Shown: positions 47,738-57,706 of the stretch, piece after piece
Layout of the letters: each line of letters begins with the position of its first letter
Position numbering within the stretch: the stretch's first letter is position 1
Assembly (NCBI GenBank): GCA_038207085.1
Contig: JBBRAE010000009.1
Coordinates: 43,148 to 107,147, forward strand
Length of the DNA stretch: 64,000 nucleotides
Source: Armatimonadota bacterium
GTDB taxonomy: Bacteria > Armatimonadota > UBA5829 > DTLH01
Direction: 5' to 3'
Made by a program: the position numbers and the translations under genes
The notes under the pieces: generated by a model
What the model saw: the letters and a program-made list of their open reading frames with translations, nothing else
Databases searched by the model: none
Told to the model about the DNA's origin: nothing

Positions 47738-50700
47738 GTGATATCAAGGATTTTCAAGCTGACTTTGTCAGCCGCAGTGGGGCTTTCGCTGCTGACTGCA
47801 ACGGGGGCTTTCGCCGCAGACCGGCACTGGGTCGCAAAAGAGGCCGGGAAATGGTCAGAACCAGCCAACTGGACCGGAGGAGTGCCCGGGCCCAAAGACA
47901 CCGCCGTGTTTGACGCAGGCGGCGCGGGCAACGCGACCGTCGACGCGGCATCTTCCGGGGCTGTCGGAAGCGTAAGCGTCCTTGCCGGCTACAAAGGGAC
48001 AATCACCCAGGAGCGCGGCCTCTCCGTCAATGGCAATATGAAACTTGCGGGCGGCTCAGCTACGGGTTGGACGTTTGCCGAAGACAAGCCCGCCGGGCTT
48101 GCCGTAAAGGGGAACCTTTCTATCGCTCTTGGCAGATCTATCACCTGCACCCGCTCCTCTACCAACAGTTTTGGCGCTGGCCGGCTGATCACCGTGGGCG
48201 GCAACCTGACCGTCGACGGCGCGATCACAGCCGACGGCAAGGGCTTTATGCGCGGTCCCGGCACTCCGGTCCTCCCGGTTGTGGCGGAGACCAAGGATCC
48301 TTCTGGCGTGCAGGACAGATACGTGTCTGGTGCGGACATTGAGCAGTACAAAAACGCCGCTCCGATCTCCCCTGCGGGCCCGGGCCACGGTGGCCGCGGG
48401 GCAGGCATCCACCACAACCCCAACGGCCAGTACACCGTGCAGCCTCACTCCTACTATTGGACAGAACCCCTCGGCTCAGGCACCTGGAAGTTCCCGGGTG
48501 GCGACACCTACGGCTCTGTTACCGCTCCGACAAGCCTCGGAAGCGGGACCGACGCCGACACCAGCTTCGACCCGAGGAACTCCTATCCATTTGACGCTGA
48601 GAACACCTTTTGGACCCACAAGGGCGCGTTCGGCGGCGGGGCGATCAAGCTCGTAGTCGGCGGTGTGACCACAGTAACCGGGCGCATCAGCGCAAACGGC
48701 GCGCCTTCAGGTGAAACTGGCGCAAGCGGCGGCTCGGTATACATTATTACCGGAAAGCTCGCGGGCGACGGCCTAGTCCGCGCCAACGGAAGCGACGGCC
48801 CCGGCCAGGGGCACGGACGGGGCGCAGGCGGCGGCGGACGCGTCGCAGTGGTGCTGAAGAACGCATCGAGCGTATTGGGCGTCATCCTGCAGGCCTACGG
48901 CGGCGAGGGCAGATGGTCCCCGGCCGCCGCAGCAGGCACGATCTACCTCGAAGGCCCGAAAGACAAGGGGCACGGCACGCTCGTCGTCGACAACCGCAAC
49001 AGCCTGGTGCGCAGTATGTTCGACATTTGCACCTCGCTTTCCGACAAAGAAAAAGCAAGCTACACTTTTAAAAGCGTCGAGCTCAAAAACCACGCAGTCT
49101 TATACGTCGGCAAGGACGACTCGCTCACCTCATCATCCGTATCGAGCCGCAACGCAAACTTGCTTGTAGAAGGCAAGCTCGCAAGCCCGAAACTAGTCGG
49201 GCTTAAGTCAAAGCAGCTTGTCAAACCCCAGGACGAGATCACTCGCACGTCCGGCGCGGCTGTGACTGAGCTTACCTTTGGCTCGGCCTACACGATGAAG
49301 CAGGAGCTCCTCAACCGAAGCTTTCAGATGTCGCTTTACCCCTACAAGGGCAAGATCGACGTTGCGGGCGACCTCAGCACCTACGCTTACCAAAACGAAG
49401 TCGCGGGCGTCAAGACCGCCGACGTTGCGCTCGTTGCAAAGTCCGGTGAAGTCGTCTCAACCGGCAGGCTCGTCTTCAACGACAAACGCTTCGGCGAGAC
49501 CTCGCTTGATGCGAACATGAAAGAGGGCGCTTACCAGATCAAGATCACCCTGGACAACGGCCTCACCATGCGTCCGCTCGTCTTTGACCGCAAGGTCTTC
49601 CCGTGGGAGCGCAACACGCTTGGCCTGACGGATAAGATCTACCCGCCGTTTGCCCCGATTACGGTATCCGGGCGCGACATCAACCTTTGCGCCGACCGGG
49701 TCTACACGATGAACGGCTTTGGCCTGTTCGACAAGATCGTAAGCCAGGGGAAAGTCATCTCAAGCGGGCCTGCCGTGGTCAAACTTGTGACCGCAAGCGG
49801 TGAAAAGAGCTGGAAGCTCACCCAGGGCAGCTTCACAAGCGTCAAGCCTAATGTCGTCGAGTATGTCGCACAGGCCGACGGAGGAGCTGCAAAGCTCTCA
49901 ACCAAGTCGACAACCGAGTTCGACGGCTGCGCCAAGGTCGAGATGGACATCACCCCCGGCACGACAGGTGAAACTATCGAGTCGATGTACATTGAGATCC
50001 CTTTGAAGGACTCCGAAACGCCACTCATGCACGCCTGCCAGCCTCAGGCTATGAGATTCAACTATGCCGGCAAGACCCCCCGCGGAGGACAAATCGCCTG
50101 GGAGGACGGCGTCTGCCCGTGGAACGACCGTCGCCCACCGCTTTGGAGCGTCAAACCCGGCACCGAAGGGCAGAACGACGGCGTCATCTGGGACTCGCGC
50201 AACATCCGAAACGTAGCATTCTGGACCGCGATCCCCTGGATACCATACTTCTGGGTAGGCGGCGGCGAGCGCGGACTCTCCTACTTTGCCGACAGCTCAA
50301 GCGGCTGCGTTCTCGACCCCGAAAAGCCGAGTCAGCAGATCGTCCGGCAGGGCGACCAACTGATTCTGCGCATTTATCTCGTCAACAAACCAAGCGTCGT
50401 CACAAGCGCGCGCCGTGTCGTCTTCGGCCTGCAGGCAAGCCCCGCCAAGCCGATGATGCCGGACTGGAGGCAGGTCGACCGCTTCGCCATCTGGGGCTAC
50501 ATGACCCCGGCGATGGGCATGTTCTGCTGCACCAAGTACCCGGTAGACCGGGATATGTCCTTGGTCGACAAACTCATCCAGAACGGCCGCGACACCAAGG
50601 CAGGCAAAGAGGTCAACTCGCAGTTTATCTACGACAAGGTGGACACGCTTACGGCCAGGGGATGGAATGAGAGCATGACCCCCGACGCCTACATCCGCCG

Positions 50701-51802
50701 CTGGGCGCAAGACCCCTGGAACCAGGCATGGAAGAACGGGCCGATGAAGAGCGTCTACTTTGAGGAGCACTGGACCGATCCCGGTCACTCAGACGTAGAC
50801 ATGTTCGGTAACGAGTGGGCCGCGCGCAGGTATCTGGGCTACTGGCCGATCCGCGACAAGGACCGCGTCGTCTACGACTCTCCCTACGCCGTGGAAATGG
50901 GCCTGACAGGCAAGTTCATAAACGGCGTCTACCCCGAGAGCCTGGTCGACTACTCGGTTTACTACGGCAACGAGTATCTGAAGCGCGGGATAGGGCTCTA
51001 CTTCGACAACACCTACCCGCACATCAGCATGAACCCGAGCGTCTCCGACGCCTACATAACCGACGAGGGCAAGATTCAGCCCGCCGATAACATCTGGAAC
51101 CAGCGCGATTACTACAAGCGCATCTGGAACCTGATCAACTACTACAACGAGCGTGGGATGAACCCGCCGGTGTGGTTCAGTCAGCACATGACCAACACGA
51201 TGATCATCCCCTGGACCGAGTGGACGACGTGTAATCTCGATAACGAGAACACCTGGACAGATGTCGCCCGCGGCATACGTCCGGCGATGTTCCCCTGGGA
51301 CTATGCGCTCACCGAGACCGCAGGCCGCCAGGCCGGGACCCCCTGCCACAGCCACTACGCGATGGCGGGCAAGGACGGAACGCCACTCCGCGAGTGGGGA
51401 ATTCGCATGGTCCATGAGATCACCAACCGGGAGAACACTGAATACGAGAAGATGATTCGGGAGTTCGGCTACGGCCGGGACGGCGTTCAGGTGATCAACT
51501 ACTGGTCGGGCGACCTGTCGGTTAAGGTCTCAAACGAGGACGTGAAGTGGCTTGCGGTGGTTCGTAAGAGTGACCCGACGACTATGCTCGTCCTTCAAAG
51601 CTGGTCATTTGACCCAACCACCACCAAGATCAGCCTGCCCGGCTGCCGCGTGTGGAAAAATGCCCTGACCGGCGAGACGATCCACGCAAATTACTATGGG
51701 GCAGCCGAGGTAAGCTTCAAGGATAGCTACGGCACGCTGATACTCGTAGGCGCGGAGACCTCCTACGACCTCGCAGACTGGAAAACCCCTCTGGCCAAGT
51801 AG
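47738..51802 (+). CDS. large secreted protein: Gly-rich beta-solenoid-like N-terminus plus putative glycoside-hydrolase (DUF6067-like) region
   Basis: Signal peptide; GGGAIKL/GASGGSV/GGGGRVAV repeats; FPWE.NTLG, WVGGGERGL, QASPAKP, GLYFDNT, HMTN; divergent from LacI. Confidence 0.7.
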   Translation: MISRIFKLTLSAAVGLSLLTATGAFAADRHWVAKEAGKWSEPANWTGGVPGPKDTAVFDAGGAGNATVDAASSGAVGSVSVLAGYKGTITQERGLSVNGNMKLAGGSATGWTFAEDKPAGLAVKGNLSIALGRSITCTRSSTNSFGAGRLITVGGNLTVDGAITADGKGFMRGPGTPVLPVVAETKDPSGVQDRYVSGADIEQYKNAAPISPAGPGHGGRGAGIHHNPNGQYTVQPHSYYWTEPLGSGTWKFPGGDTYGSVTAPTSLGSGTDADTSFDPRNSYPFDAENTFWTHKGAFGGGAIKLVVGGVTTVTGRISANGAPSGETGASGGSVYIITGKLAGDGLVRANGSDGPGQGHGRGAGGGGRVAVVLKNASSVLGVILQAYGGEGRWSPAAAAGTIYLEGPKDKGHGTLVVDNRNSLVRSMFDICTSLSDKEKASYTFKSVELKNHAVLYVGKDDSLTSSSVSSRNANLLVEGKLASPKLVGLKSKQLVKPQDEITRTSGAAVTELTFGSAYTMKQELLNRSFQMSLYPYKGKIDVAGDLSTYAYQNEVAGVKTADVALVAKSGEVVSTGRLVFNDKRFGETSLDANMKEGAYQIKITLDNGLTMRPLVFDRKVFPWERNTLGLTDKIYPPFAPITVSGRDINLCADRVYTMNGFGLFDKIVSQGKVISSGPAVVKLVTASGEKSWKLTQGSFTSVKPNVVEYVAQADGGAAKLSTKSTTEFDGCAKVEMDITPGTTGETIESMYIEIPLKDSETPLMHACQPQAMRFNYAGKTPRGGQIAWEDGVCPWNDRRPPLWSVKPGTEGQNDGVIWDSRNIRNVAFWTAIPWIPYFWVGGGERGLSYFADSSSGCVLDPEKPSQQIVRQGDQLILRIYLVNKPSVVTSARRVVFGLQASPAKPMMPDWRQVDRFAIWGYMTPAMGMFCCTKYPVDRDMSLVDKLIQNGRDTKAGKEVNSQFIYDKVDTLTARGWNESMTPDAYIRRWAQDPWNQAWKNGPMKSVYFEEHWTDPGHSDVDMFGNEWAARRYLGYWPIRDKDRVVYDSPYAVEMGLTGKFINGVYPESLVDYSVYYGNEYLKRGIGLYFDNTYPHISMNPSVSDAYITDEGKIQPADNIWNQRDYYKRIWNLINYYNERGMNPPVWFSQHMTNTMIIPWTEWTTCNLDNENTWTDVARGIRPAMFPWDYALTETAGRQAGTPCHSHYAMAGKDGTPLREWGIRMVHEITNRENTEYEKMIREFGYGRDGVQVINYWSGDLSVKVSNEDVKWLAVVRKSDPTTMLVLQSWSFDPTTTKISLPGCRVWKNALTGETIHANYYGAAEVSFKDSYGTLILVGAETSYDLADWKTPLAK

Positions 51803-54090: not shown

Positions 54091-54693
54091 TTATCGGGGC
54101 GAGGCGACCGCTTCGCCCCTTGATTTTATCAGTCCCTTAACCCGGTTCAAGTTGTTCGTAACCGCCGGGTCGTCCGGTTCCCGCTTCAGCATCACTTCCC
54201 ATGTCTCAAGCGACTTCTCAAGATTCCCCGAGCGTTCATAGGCGTGGGCAAGCGAGTGCCAGATGAGGTCCGGGCAATCGATCTGCTTAACCGCCGACGC
54301 GAAGTACCCAACAGCCGTAGCGTAATCTTTGTCGAAGAAATACATGCGCCCAAGCTCCGTGTAGAGCCTGTAGCGGGTGGGGTTTCGCGCAAGTCCAAGC
54401 TTCAGGTAGTCTGTCGCCTCAGACTTTCGCCCTTTGCTGTCCATAAGCCAGGCGGCAAGCGAGTAGGCTTCAACGTCGAAGGGGTCATTTTCAGCAACGA
54501 GCTTTAGCGTGGCGATCGCCCGTTCGTAGTTTCCCCTGTGGAAGAAGACGTCCGTCTTCTCCCAGAGTATCTCGTCCATCCTCCCAAGCGTCTCCGTGAT
54601 CAGGTCATAGGACTTGGCAGGCACGTCGCGCACGGTGTCTGCAACGACGGGGGAACCCAAAAGAACCAGCGCTATCAGAACAATCGGTTTCAT
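54091..54693 (-). CDS. exported TPR protein
   Basis: Signal peptide, FHRGNYERAI, TPR helices. Confidence 0.8.
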   Translation of the reverse strand: MKPIVLIALVLLGSPVVADTVRDVPAKSYDLITETLGRMDEILWEKTDVFFHRGNYERAIATLKLVAENDPFDVEAYSLAAWLMDSKGRKSEATDYLKLGLARNPTRYRLYTELGRMYFFDKDYATAVGYFASAVKQIDCPDLIWHSLAHAYERSGNLEKSLETWEVMLKREPDDPAVTNNLNRVKGLIKSRGEAVASPR

Positions 54694-54719
54694 CGACAAC
54701 CCCCTTTTCCTGGTCGAGG

Positions 54720-55694
54720 CTACCCTTCCAGCATCTCCAAAAAGCTCTCGATCCTAACCCTGGTACGTGCGTCAAGCGGCCCCGGGCTCTCCCCTTCAAG
54801 CGTCAGAATAGGAATATGTATGTCCTTGCGCACGATCAGGTCCTGAATCTGCCTGAAGCAGAAGCTCTGTGTATAGTGAACGAGCCCGCGGATATTTCGC
54901 CGCTCGATCTCGCGCTTGATGTCGGCGATCCGCCCAAAAATATCATAGGGATATGTGTAAAGTGCGTACTGCTCGACGATGTCGCCCGTGTCAAAGGGCA
55001 TCGCAAACTGTCGCTGTACCTCGTTTAGGACGATTTGTGCTCCCCGCTCACTAAGCACCTCGTAAAAGTCCGAAAAGATCGGCGGAATGCCAATATACCC
55101 GAGCCTGATCCCGCCCGCCTTCGGTGCCCGTTCCCTCGCCTCGGCAAGAAACGCGTCAAGCTCCCGCTCAAATCGCAGGGGATCTCCCCAGAAGTCGCTA
55201 GCCGATATCTGCCAGGTGTGGTTTTCCCGTGCTGTAACCAAGCCGTCGCGCCAGGTAAGCAGATCCAGCTCTCGCAGCTTGAGGCGTATCGCGTCGAGCT
55301 GGGCTTTCCAGTCCATCACGTCCGCCCAATTTGCCCCAAGCCGCGCGGCAAGTTTTTCTATCTGAAGCCGCAGCATGTCCCGGTCCCGCCCGTATGGAAA
55401 CGCAAACGGGATCACTTCAAGCCCGTGCATCTCGAACGTCTCCATCATCGCCTGTGTCTGGCTGCAGTCACCCTCCACCGCCGCGATCACCCGCCCGATG
55501 CCCGAGGATATAGCAGTCGAGTAGATCCCCTTTATCCAGCTGCAGACGTTTCTGGGGTAGCCGTCGTGCTCAGCCTGGCGGACAAGTTCCTGTGGGTCTG
55601 GGGAGGCGACAAAGACGTTGTTCAGGTCGACGGGCGTGTGTCCCGCCGCAAACACGGCCTCAACGGGGATTGTGGTGGTGATTCCGACTTCCAC
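54720..55694 (-). CDS. 2-hydroxyacyl-CoA dehydratase / benzoyl-CoA reductase (HgdB/FldC-type) family Fe-S protein
   Basis: TTIPVE.VFAAG..P, NVCSWIK, GDCSQT, QSFCFR, IPILTLEGE, RTRVRIESFLEML. Confidence 0.85.
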   Translation of the reverse strand: MEVGITTTIPVEAVFAAGHTPVDLNNVFVASPDPQELVRQAEHDGYPRNVCSWIKGIYSTAISSGIGRVIAAVEGDCSQTQAMMETFEMHGLEVIPFAFPYGRDRDMLRLQIEKLAARLGANWADVMDWKAQLDAIRLKLRELDLLTWRDGLVTARENHTWQISASDFWGDPLRFERELDAFLAEARERAPKAGGIRLGYIGIPPIFSDFYEVLSERGAQIVLNEVQRQFAMPFDTGDIVEQYALYTYPYDIFGRIADIKREIERRNIRGLVHYTQSFCFRQIQDLIVRKDIHIPILTLEGESPGPLDARTRVRIESFLEMLEG

Positions 55695-55696
55695 GG

Positions 55697-56449
55697 CTAT
55701 CTGATGCCAAGCAGCTTGTGCATCTGTGGGATGATCCGAACCTCGTCGACGTACTCGGTGGCGATCCTGTGCAGCTGCAGAAGTCTGATAAGTGTCGGAG
55801 GCTCGCGCCCGTCGTCGGGGTTCGGAGTGATCGGTTGGATAATAATCGGCGCGGTCTTCCCCGAGCCCGCGATGATCTGCGCGCTCCTTCTGATCTCCTC
55901 ATCGGTCACGTCCGAGGTCACGATCAGCTTGACGAACACCTTGGCGCGCTGGGTCGACTTCAGAAACGTTTCGTGCACCTCGAAAAAGTCGTCGTAGGCG
56001 GTGGAGGAGGGCAGTTTGAAGTCCATTGCGACCACATCTAGCTGTCCGGCGAGCCTTGTGATCGCCTCTGGTAGCGTCCCGTTGGTCTCAAGATGCACCC
56101 TGTAGCCTTTGCTTCTTAGCGCGGGCAGGAGTTTTACGAGGAAATCGATCTGCAGCAGCGGTTCTCCTCCGGTGATCGAGATATCGCCGTGCTTGGCAAG
56201 GGGCGCGATCGCTTCGACCACATCGGGCACTTCAAGCGGGTTCTGCATAAAGGCGAAGTCGCCGTGTCCCGCTGTCTTTTCGACCGAGCAGAACGACCTG
56301 TGCGCCTCGCGAGAGGCTCCGGTGTCGCAATAGTCGCAATCGAGGTTGCACCCCGCGAAGCGAACGAACGCGTGCGGCTTGCCTACGTAGATACCTTCGC
56401 CCTGTATCGATGCAAAAATTTCGGTTATGTTTGCGGTCACTGAAGACAT
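55697..56449 (-). CDS. queE: 7-carboxy-7-deazaguanine synthase (radical SAM)
   Basis: EIFASIQGEG, FVRFAGCNLDCDYCDT, TGGEPLLQ, ETNGT, IPQMHK. Confidence 0.92.
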   Translation of the reverse strand: MSSVTANITEIFASIQGEGIYVGKPHAFVRFAGCNLDCDYCDTGASREAHRSFCSVEKTAGHGDFAFMQNPLEVPDVVEAIAPLAKHGDISITGGEPLLQIDFLVKLLPALRSKGYRVHLETNGTLPEAITRLAGQLDVVAMDFKLPSSTAYDDFFEVHETFLKSTQRAKVFVKLIVTSDVTDEEIRRSAQIIAGSGKTAPIIIQPITPNPDDGREPPTLIRLLQLHRIATEYVDEVRIIPQMHKLLGIR

Positions 56450-56491
56450 TGTTTTCCCTTTTTACTACAAATCAACAGCGCTGCGTTTCTT

Positions 56492-56854
56492 CTAATCTTC
56501 CCAATAGCTCGCTGCCGAGCCTTCTGTTTCCCAAACCGTCACTTTTTCAAGCGGACCTGTGTACTTTTCCGCCAGCTTGCCGTATATATATCTAGCAATG
56601 TTCTCTGCGGATGGGTTAATATCGACGAATTCGGGTAGTTCATTCATATAGGTGTGGTCGAGATATTTCAGTATATCACGCAGATCATTGCGGACGTTAC
56701 GAAAATCGATCGCCACTCCAATGGAGTCGAGGATTTCCGTTTGCAAAAGCGCCTGAACGCGGTACGTATGACCGTGCAGCCGCTCGCAGTTTCCAGGGTA
56801 ACCGCGGAGGCAGTGTGCGGAGTCAAATTTCTCTTCAATTAGTATTTCAAACAT
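56492..56854 (-). CDS. queD: 6-carboxytetrahydropterin synthase
   Basis: FDSAHCL, CERLHGHTY, LDHTYMN, NPSAENIA, VWET. Confidence 0.93.
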   Translation of the reverse strand: MFEILIEEKFDSAHCLRGYPGNCERLHGHTYRVQALLQTEILDSIGVAIDFRNVRNDLRDILKYLDHTYMNELPEFVDINPSAENIARYIYGKLAEKYTGPLEKVTVWETEGSAASYWED

Positions 56855-56901
56855 ATATAGACCACCGACAAGTCAAACATATCGCTCGCCCAGACTGTGT
56901 C

Positions 56902-56931
56902 ATTATACCGGTGCGAGGCTGCAGGCGTCAA
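56902..56931 (-). promoter_or_regulatory. sigma70 promoter for the queD operon
   Basis: Minus strand TTGACG-N18-TATAAT. Confidence 0.65.
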
Positions 56932-56989: not shown

Positions 56990-57706
56990 ATGGCAACAAA
57001 AATAGACATCCGAACAAACTACGCAACCCGGCGCGGATCCTGTGAGATCAACGAGGACTATACGCTCGTCCTTTCGGGCGACTATGCGCCCTGTGGCACG
57101 CTTGCGCTCCTGACCGTCGCCGACGGCATCGGCGGGCGTGGCAACGGGGCCGAGGCAAGTAGCCTTGCTCTTAAGATGACAGTCGATGTCTTTGCCGCAA
57201 GTTGCTCAATCTCAATGGGCACGATGTCCGACGTCCCGCACCTCTTGCGGTTCGCCGTCCAGAAAGCCAACGCCGCCGCGTTCACCGCTCAGTCCGAGAA
57301 TGAACTGCTCCGCGGCATGGGTTCAACATGCGTCGCCGCCGCGATCACCACAGACGCAGTGCATCTGGTCTCCGTCGGAGACAGCCGAGCCTACATATTC
57401 CGCGCGGGCGAGTTGATCCCCCTCACCAAGGACGAGTGGCAAAAGTCCCAGGACGGCATCACCTACGTCACCCGTGCGATAGGCTGGCAGCCCATCCTGC
57501 CTACCGAGCCGATCAGCGCCACAGTCCGAAGCGGCGACCTCGTCCTGCTTTGCACCGACGGCCTGACCGACGCCCTGTCAGAAGAAGAAATCGCCGAAAT
57601 ACTCAATTCCACCTGTTTCACCCAGTCAGCCGAAGTCCTTGCCGACGCCGCTGCTGCGACTCCAGGCTCAGACAACGTCACAGTCGCGCTTGCGAAGATC
57701 GGCTAA
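56990..57706 (+). CDS. PP2C-family Ser/Thr protein phosphatase
   Basis: NED, VADGIGG, GMGST, VGDSRAY, LCTDGL, DNVT. Confidence 0.9.
   Translation: MATKIDIRTNYATRRGSCEINEDYTLVLSGDYAPCGTLALLTVADGIGGRGNGAEASSLALKMTVDVFAASCSISMGTMSDVPHLLRFAVQKANAAAFTAQSENELLRGMGSTCVAAAITTDAVHLVSVGDSRAYIFRAGELIPLTKDEWQKSQDGITYVTRAIGWQPILPTEPISATVRSGDLVLLCTDGLTDALSEEEIAEILNSTCFTQSAEVLADAAAATPGSDNVTVALAKIG

Follow-up and report, generated by a model that had tools for sequence, protein, structure and literature searches.

A single-subunit HGD-D-type protein encoded with queD and queE as a probable ATP-driven replacement for QueF

This paper deals with a small gene cluster of an Armatimonadota bacterium, in which two genes of queuosine biosynthesis (queD and queE) are followed by the gene for a single-subunit protein of the HGD-D/HgdB/DCCP superfamily, hereafter called the HGD-D protein, and by a TPR gene. 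The cluster lies on the minus strand of the window, i.e., the whole stretch of 64,000 nucleotides that was analyzed (contig C9:43148-107147 of a genome assembly of 3.35 Mb in 83 contigs, 100% complete). We propose that the HGD-D protein is probably an ATP- and activator-driven reductase converting preQ0 (7-cyano-7-deazaguanine) to preQ1, and thereby a non-orthologous replacement for QueF. A sequence-only reading of the window had already put forward an ATP-driven QueF replacement as one of its options, and it now finds support in the linkage of the gene to queE, its association with an HgdC-type activator, and its mutual exclusion with QueF, all of these being comparative evidence. The protein is proposed as a functional analogue of QueF and not as a member of the QueF family (PF14489/TIGR03139, T-fold), as it matches only PF06050.

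The gene order queD, queE, HgdB/FldC-type gene, and TPR gene is indeed as the sequence-only reading had described it. The first gene, queD (56492..56854, minus strand), encodes a 6-carboxytetrahydropterin synthase of 120 amino acids (aa), recognized by PF01242 with 124.7 bits and by the QueD model TIGR03367 with 93.3 bits (cut-off 89.25). The second, queE (55697..56449, minus strand), encodes a radical SAM protein of 250 aa assigned as 7-carboxy-7-deazaguanine synthase. Its best NCBIfam QueE models give about 82 bits, under their cut-offs of 200-300; no other QueE homolog exists in the genome, where queC, tgt, queA, and queG are likewise present. Both queD and queE are the sole copies in the genome, with no second copy of either found by tblastn. 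The HGD-D gene (54720..55694, minus strand; 324 aa; PF06050 120.9 bits, cut-off 28.4) starts with a GTG only 2 nucleotides (nt) after the queE stop codon (junction TAG-CC-GTG), just as had been read from the letters.

To see where the HGD-D protein may fit, the queuosine pathway of the whole genome has to be considered. Outside the window, queC is found on contig C44 (232.7 bits) and queG on contig C20 (283.6 bits, cut-off 200), and the genome furthermore contains tgt (542.7 bits), queA (412.1 bits), and folE. For QueF, PF14489 gives no match in the genome, and the weak 16.3-bit match of TIGR03139 on contig C47 lies inside folE and is not QueF. QueH was not found in the genome either. The absence of queC, queF, queG, and queH from the window, noted earlier, thus holds, and for queF and queH it extends to the whole genome. 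Since queD, queE, queC, and the other genes needed are there, preQ0 synthesis is possible and the QueF step is a hole in the pathway: the organism can make preQ0 and has the enzymes needing preQ1-tRNA, yet it has no known enzyme in between. A second option of the sequence-only reading, namely a replacement for QueG or QueH, had to be dropped, as the genome has a QueG scoring well over its cut-off.

Across genomes, the HGD-D subfamily and QueF exclude each other. QueF scores over its cut-off in none of 80 carrier genomes (0/50 and 0/30), and among the 513 genomes of three taxon samples, 176 have the subfamily, 212 have QueF, and none has both. An anti-correlation with queF, which had been named as a check on the proposal, is therefore present. 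The phylum sample (Armatimonadota, 301 genomes) splits into 49 genomes with the HGD-D protein, 139 with QueF, and 113 with neither. The order of Geobacter hydrogenophilus (121 genomes) has 48, 72, and 1, respectively, and the order holding Desulfotomaculum sp. (91 genomes) has 79, 1, and 11. Within the phylum, whole families (numbered here with an f) are all-or-none: the HGD-D protein occurs in 14/16 and QueF in 0/16 genomes of f2, while f13 has the HGD-D protein in 0/31 and QueF in 31/31.

This complementarity goes together with the presence of the remaining pathway. QueC accompanies the HGD-D protein in 48 of the 49 carriers of the phylum sample, and the first 50 carriers examined have QueA in 48 and QueC in 40 cases. 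Seen from the other side, the 196 QueC-positive genomes of the phylum have either the HGD-D protein (48) or QueF (123) and never both, with 25 exceptions that have neither. Families with neither enzyme mostly miss QueC as well (QueC 0/13 in f16, 0/19 in f29), and in one genus of f2 (genomes G167 and G212) QueC, the HGD-D protein, and the activator are all missing together. Nine carriers have no QueC, and all nine keep QueA (9/9). A similar pattern is seen for QueF, as 16 of the 139 QueF-positive genomes are also QueC-less; these 16 presumably salvage preQ0.

Gene neighborhoods were compared over 80 related loci, whose HGD-D homologs are 46-75% identical. They come from Armatimonadota (including WS1 and Zipacnadia), Vulcanimicrobiota, Cloacimonadota, Planctomycetota, Zixibacteria, WOR-3, several Bacillota families, and Thermodesulfobacteriota (including Geobacter hydrogenophilus), and the subfamily as a whole ranges over at least 8 phyla. 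A queE ortholog sits directly upstream of the HGD-D gene in 42/80 loci, queD is present in 21/80, and tgt is nearby in 1/80. The HGD-D gene therefore clusters physically with que genes, and the expectation that the neighborhoods of this subfamily would be linked to them is borne out. Over the 80 loci, the neighbor clusters consist of que genes, the activator, DUF366, tyrosyl-tRNA synthetase (TyrRS), RNase PH, Ham1, TatD, and RtcA. Bacillota and Thermodesulfobacteriota loci have the HGD-D gene paired with the activator among housekeeping genes, and the non-que neighbors comprise a glutamate-racemase-type gene, RNase PH, Ham1, TatD, thioredoxin, RtcA, a PNP-family gene, and tRNA genes. A protein of about 301 aa matching no Pfam or NCBIfam model is encoded downstream of the HGD-D gene in 20/80 loci, from the WS1/Zipacnadia type of Armatimonadota (e.g., L068:6576-7478). 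In many cases, genes for an M48 peptidase-TPR protein and TyrRS come after it.

The specific adjacency to queE in 42/80 loci could also be taken to mean that the HGD-D protein serves another deazapurine step, either as a dedicated low-potential reductant or repair partner of QueE or as a tailoring enzyme, with the role of QueF being filled otherwise. QueE is a radical SAM enzyme that needs a reduced [4Fe-4S] cluster, and the DUF366 protein likewise travels with queE, so there is something to be said for such a link. We nonetheless consider it unlikely, because it leaves unexplained why the HGD-D protein and QueF never occur together (0/513 and 0/80 genomes). Moreover, QueF-positive relatives possess QueE and do without the HGD-D protein, the nine QueC-less carriers retain the HGD-D protein along with QueA, and the genome studied here has no DUF366. 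A new tailoring step, the third option of the sequence-only reading, keeps the same small share of probability, but it gives no account of the complementarity with QueF.

The proposed preQ0 reductase must also be weighed against a function outside queuosine altogether, for example, an ATP-driven reduction in anaerobes, in which case the QueF pattern would reflect lineage history and the adjacency to queE would be an accident of one phylum. Outside the Armatimonadota there is no clustering with que genes, and kin share gene content, so that clade-level patterns can arise even where no functional link exists. In addition, the review PMC7317905 treats the physiological substrates of the superfamily's single-subunit members as still to be found. 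What makes this explanation distinctly improbable is that the exclusion repeats itself in three unrelated taxon samples, up to a near-complete partition of the Geobacter order (48 plus 72 of 121 genomes, with 1 having neither). Carriers from at least 8 phyla are involved, with QueF in 0/80, and the HGD-D protein is lost jointly with QueC in one genus and accompanied by QueC in 48/49 carriers.

The second component of the proposed system is an HgdC-type ATPase, the activator (or archerase). As had been noted from the sequence, none is adjacent to the HGD-D gene: BcrAD/HgdC-type matches are found on contigs C25, C12, C10, C3, and C23 and none on the window's own contig. The stand-alone activator of the genome is encoded at C25:29029-29844 (PF01869 E 1e-61; TIGR00241 271 bits, cut-off 125) between unrelated genes. 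In the related loci the connection is much more direct, since the activator gene lies immediately downstream of the HGD-D gene in 21/80 of them. True fusions exist as well: a profile search of the whole library gave a list of 150, and of the 18 long representatives from it that were tested, 13 join PF06050 to a PF01869 domain behind it within a single chain, through linkers of 15-60 residues. An activator (E at most 1e-40) is present in 48 of the 49 carriers of the phylum sample vs 24 of the 252 non-carriers, and the two cysteines that hold the activator's cluster show no variation in 17 sequences. An HgdC-type activator, looked for in the neighborhoods at the suggestion of the sequence-only reading, is hence adjacent or fused in part of the cases, and it is encoded in nearly all carriers of the phylum sample. 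The conserved module is real.

Some open frames of 580-618 aa in the Desulfotomaculum order look like further fusions, but this was ruled out for four of them (L107-L110), which have an in-frame TGA inside the TTGAGGTGA junction. Here the HGD-D gene ends with TTG AGG TGA, its stop codon forming part of an AGGTGA that resembles a Shine-Dalgarno sequence. In 4/4 genomes examined, the start of the activator follows without a change of frame at a distance of 2-3 codons, which makes the two translationally coupled genes. Elsewhere in the genome under study, a 1427-aa open frame (C12:46692-48416, outside the window) holds two BcrAD_BadFG ATPase domains in a fused, "CoA-enzyme activase"-type arrangement; the PF06050 model gave no genome match there or anywhere else beside the window gene. 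Two Bacillota carriers encode a second BcrAD ATPase together with two DUF2229/HGD-D-like genes and a Fur-family regulator (L118:8110-10898 and L119:6701-9706), and this group is situated just upstream of a queD-queC-DUF366-queE-folE operon.

Turning to the HGD-D protein itself, its PF06050 (IPR010327) match spans residues 7-322, which places it in the superfamily, and is the single match in the whole genome. The AlphaFold (AF2) model (pLDDT 93.0, pTM 0.90) has a two-domain Rossmann-like fold. Foldseek aligns it with DCCP (6ENO), HadC (3O3N_B), BzdN (8S02_B), and MbdN (9G87_B) at query TM-scores (TMq) of about 0.79, 0.79, 0.77, and 0.80, respectively, within an overall range of 0.76-0.80, and the next matches, with unrelated folds, have a TMq of at most 0.26. 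A profile built from 38 members of the subfamily retrieves as its closest relatives of solved structure DCCP (6ENO/7YYL, E 6e-12), HadC (3O3M_B, E 6e-9), and BzdN (8S02_B, E 6e-4), i.e., ATP-driven low-potential reductases. Only three cysteines are invariant across the 38 members, and they are those of the motifs picked out by the sequence-only reading: VCSWIKG (C51), GDCS (C77), and SFCF (C279). All three align with cysteines of DCCP, whose further cysteines sit in insertions missing from the subfamily. Judging by this pattern, they would suit a [4Fe-4S] cluster in which one iron is left open.

The protein belongs to the superfamily, but it is neither a DCCP nor a classical dehydratase/benzoyl-CoA reductase. 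DCCP membership is ruled out by the score with the DCCP model NF040772 (28.5 bits vs a cut-off of 350) and by the three invariant cysteines in place of a 7-Cys motif; the Geobacter and Desulfotomaculum homologs likewise reach just 43.6 and 47.6 bits. The 2-hydroxyacyl-CoA dehydratases are heterodimers, whereas the genome has one PF06050 gene, and the related loci are also single-gene. The second dehydratase subunit that was reported missing from the neighborhood is thus missing from the whole genome. As to CoA-ester metabolism, no CoA-transferase appears among the neighbor clusters of at least 3 members in the 80 related loci, nor among the open reading frames (ORFs) within about 3 kb of the cluster, although the latter were not the object of a search aimed at CoA-transferases. 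It is the single subunit and the lack of a CoA context that set the protein apart from the classical enzymes. Public annotation of the subfamily reads only "2-hydroxyacyl-CoA dehydratase" or "BcrC/BadD/HgdB," and no NCBIfam model is passed by the window protein or by its Geobacter and Desulfotomaculum homologs. Subfamily members from different phyla share 50-60% identity and their clades follow taxonomy, which would suit a housekeeping enzyme.

It is instructive to compare the HGD-D protein with the systems that it resembles in role or in structure. QueF has the T-fold and works with NADPH by way of a covalent Cys-thioimide. With QueF the HGD-D protein shares the proposed position in the pathway (preQ0 to preQ1), the co-occurrence with QueC, Tgt, and QueA, and the clustering with queD and queE, and some genomes with QueF are QueC-less, as are some HGD-D carriers. 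On the other hand, the two have no relation in sequence or fold (PF14489, TIGR03138/TIGR03139 for QueF). The HGD-D protein has the HGD-D fold, three cysteines for a predicted Fe-S cluster, and an ATPase activator, and none of the genomes searched has both it and QueF.

In sequence and fold the best match is the double-cubane cluster protein, DCCP (6ENO, 7YYL; NF040772), with an E-value of 6e-12 and a TMq of 0.79. We know of no physiological substrate of DCCP and of no reported linkage to que genes. DCCP and its reductase DCCP-R are similar to the proposed system in that a single kind of subunit is paired with an HgdC-type ATPase. They differ in that the HGD-D protein is about 100 residues shorter and has three invariant cysteines vs the 7-Cys motif. 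According to PMC7317905, DCCP is a homodimer that carries this 7-Cys motif, with six cluster ligands, and that reduces small unsaturated molecules in an ATP-dependent manner. The same text describes the ATP-dependent reduction of the triple bond of acetylene and inhibition by cyanide (PMC7317905).

The 2-hydroxyacyl-CoA dehydratases (HgdAB, HadBC, and FldBC with the activators HgdC and HadI) share with the HGD-D protein the PF06050 domain, a [4Fe-4S] site of three cysteines that leaves one iron open (predicted in our case), and an ATP-dependent archerase. They are alpha/beta heterodimers acting on CoA thioesters, have CoA-transferase genes nearby, and recycle one electron catalytically. Here, in contrast, there is one PF06050 gene and there are no CoA-related neighbors, and the proposed reaction would use four electrons. 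For HadB and HadC, a [4Fe-4S] cluster on three cysteines with one unliganded iron is described for each in PMC7317905. The class I benzoyl-CoA reductases (BcrABCD, BzdNOPQ, and MbdONPQ), finally, match in fold (BzdN/MbdN, TMq 0.77-0.80) and resemble the proposed reaction in that they reduce at very low potential with a stoichiometric use of ATP. They have four subunits, two of them different HGD-D-type proteins, as well as a heterodimeric ATPase and aromatic CoA-esters as substrates, and none of these features is present here.

Put together, the HGD-D protein would catalyze a four-electron reduction of the preQ0 nitrile to the aminomethyl group of preQ1. Reduced ferredoxin or flavodoxin would load the bridging [4Fe-4S] cluster of the activator, supplied in this genome from the C25 locus, after which ATP hydrolysis would push single electrons of low potential, one after another, into the predicted [4Fe-4S] cluster on C51, C77, and C279. 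The nitrile nitrogen may bind to the fourth, cysteine-free iron of this cluster, and four electron and proton transfers would then yield the amine. Tgt, QueA, and QueG would complete queuosine on the tRNA, with the pair of HGD-D protein and activator substituting for the missing QueF. Such nitrile chemistry has precedents in the acetylene reduction and cyanide inhibition of DCCP and in nitrogenase, which reduces nitriles. The substrate is most likely free-base preQ0. Given the RNA-related neighbors in some phyla, preQ0 already inserted in tRNA is an alternative substrate worth testing.

Critically speaking, several points weigh against the proposed role as preQ0 reductase. Its support is wholly comparative, and a stoichiometric four-electron reduction driven by ATP would be costly in comparison with the NADPH-dependent QueF. 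The gene is not found beside que genes outside the Armatimonadota and their allies (none of the Bacillota and Thermodesulfobacteriota loci). No preQ1 riboswitch was detected in the 50-60 kb part of the window with E-values up to 1, nor in 12 related loci at the gathering score, nor in 7 queC regions of carrier genomes. The counts themselves should be read with care, since related genomes are not independent, so that Fisher values overstate the case, and most carrier genomes are metagenome-assembled genomes of unknown completeness. Neither enzyme is found in 11/91 genomes of the Bacillota order and 1/121 of the Geobacter order. The same applies to the 25 of the 196 QueC-positive genomes of the phylum, which are those of family f4 (7/7) and family f26 (12/15) and six other genomes; it follows that at least one more solution, or a different use for preQ0, has to exist. 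For f4 and f26, which have QueE orthologs and neither QueF nor the HGD-D subfamily, the pattern implies a third solution or a different fate of preQ0. Genomes of these two families (f26 examples G183 and G108; loci L103-L106) have QueC and QueE and neither of the two enzymes. Lastly, the uncharacterized DUF366 (PF04017) is also linked to queE, in 21/80 loci, and is found inside que operons of Bacillota.

The last point leads to the possibility that the place of QueF is really taken by some other protein, with the HGD-D protein in an accessory role, the candidates being DUF366, the 301-aa protein, and a flavoprotein of PF12831. DUF366 lies between queC and queE in Bacillota operons (queD-queC-DUF366-queE-folE in carriers of the HGD-D protein), stands beside queE in 21/80 loci, precedes queE in loci that do not have queD, and occurs in f26, a family devoid of both QueF and the HGD-D protein. 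Of three f4 genomes examined, two have the PF12831 gene next to queD. The genome studied here, however, has the full pathway minus QueF and yet no homolog of DUF366 or of the 301-aa protein (tblastn), and it does have a PF12831 homolog, so this flavoprotein is not specific to f4. We rate an accessory role of the HGD-D protein as the least probable of the explanations considered. DUF366 as a general QueF substitute is weakened by its absence from this genome, and as a QueD substitute it is ruled out, as PTPS/QueD was found in 5/5 DUF366 genomes tested. The flavoprotein as a third reductase in f4 is weakened by the homolog in our genome, at 43.5% identity.

Examples of DUF366 loci are L072:4542-5096, L119:4557-5111, and L103:7361-7945, with 24 further ones, and in family f26 the gene is part of a DUF366-PaaK-like-queE cluster. 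We found no paper on DUF366/PF04017 in a search of the freely accessible literature. The PF12831 FAD oxidoreductase gene of f4 (G272, G070, and G248) lies between gatB and queD in two of the three genomes.

Coming back to the preQ0 reductase, its significance would lie in several directions. Nitrile reduction by QueF is termed a biologically unique reaction in the abstract of PMC7317782, and the HGD-D protein would be a second solution to it, by an unrelated enzyme with nitrogenase-like, ATP-energized electrons. We think it reasonably likely that nature has a second nitrile reductase with no relation to QueF, that it takes the form of an ATP-driven, archerase-dependent [4Fe-4S] enzyme and operates in QueF-less anaerobes of at least 8 phyla (Geobacter, Desulfotomaculum-type Bacillota, Armatimonadota, and Planctomycetota, among others), and that it is also the first single-subunit, three-Cys member of the superfamily with an assigned physiological substrate. 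According to PMC7317905, the small-molecule reductases of the superfamily are still waiting for one. If correct, the proposal would close a gap in reconstructions of the queuosine pathway, where lineages with QueC, Tgt, and QueA and no QueF would now be wrongly scored as unable to make preQ1. A full-text literature search, whose scope excluded subscription-only papers and supplements, gave no paper that connects the superfamily with queuosine or with the reduction of preQ0. The proposal is directly testable thanks to cultured carriers, namely Geobacter hydrogenophilus DSM 13691 (L022) and a Desulfotomaculum sp. (L021).

A few features of the window remain to be described. Upstream of queD, a sigma-70-like promoter match, TTGACG-18-TATAAT (56902..56931, minus strand), agrees with the consensus at 11/12 positions. 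The single promoter claimed for the cluster thus has a matching site, which stands as a consensus match only, as the region has 3 promoter-like sites vs 1.7 expected from shuffles. The last gene of the cluster (54091..54699, minus strand) encodes a protein of TPR families with an N-terminal signal-like segment, and its likelier start is the ATG at 54693, behind the ribosome-binding site AAAGGGGG. The TPR gene was rejected as a part of the system, as tblastn found it in 0/80 related loci.

ORFs within about 3 kb of the cluster code for a PP2C phosphatase, a DUF3034 protein, and secreted proteins. Further away, upstream of the region, the plus strand encodes at 47738-51802 a protein of 1354 aa that has Gly-rich repeats and whose N-terminus is signal-like. 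The closest relatives (L015-L017, L031, L035, and L104, the latter being G070) have genes for a homocysteine S-methyltransferase (PF02574) and MTHFR (PF02219) inserted between queD and queE, an insertion that the window's genome lacks. The phosphatase is a PP2C-type Ser/Thr enzyme (Stp1-like, 141.9 bits, under the cut-off) encoded at 56990-57706 (plus strand), divergently from the queD promoter region, and L015 and L016, which are the two closest relatives, have kept this arrangement.

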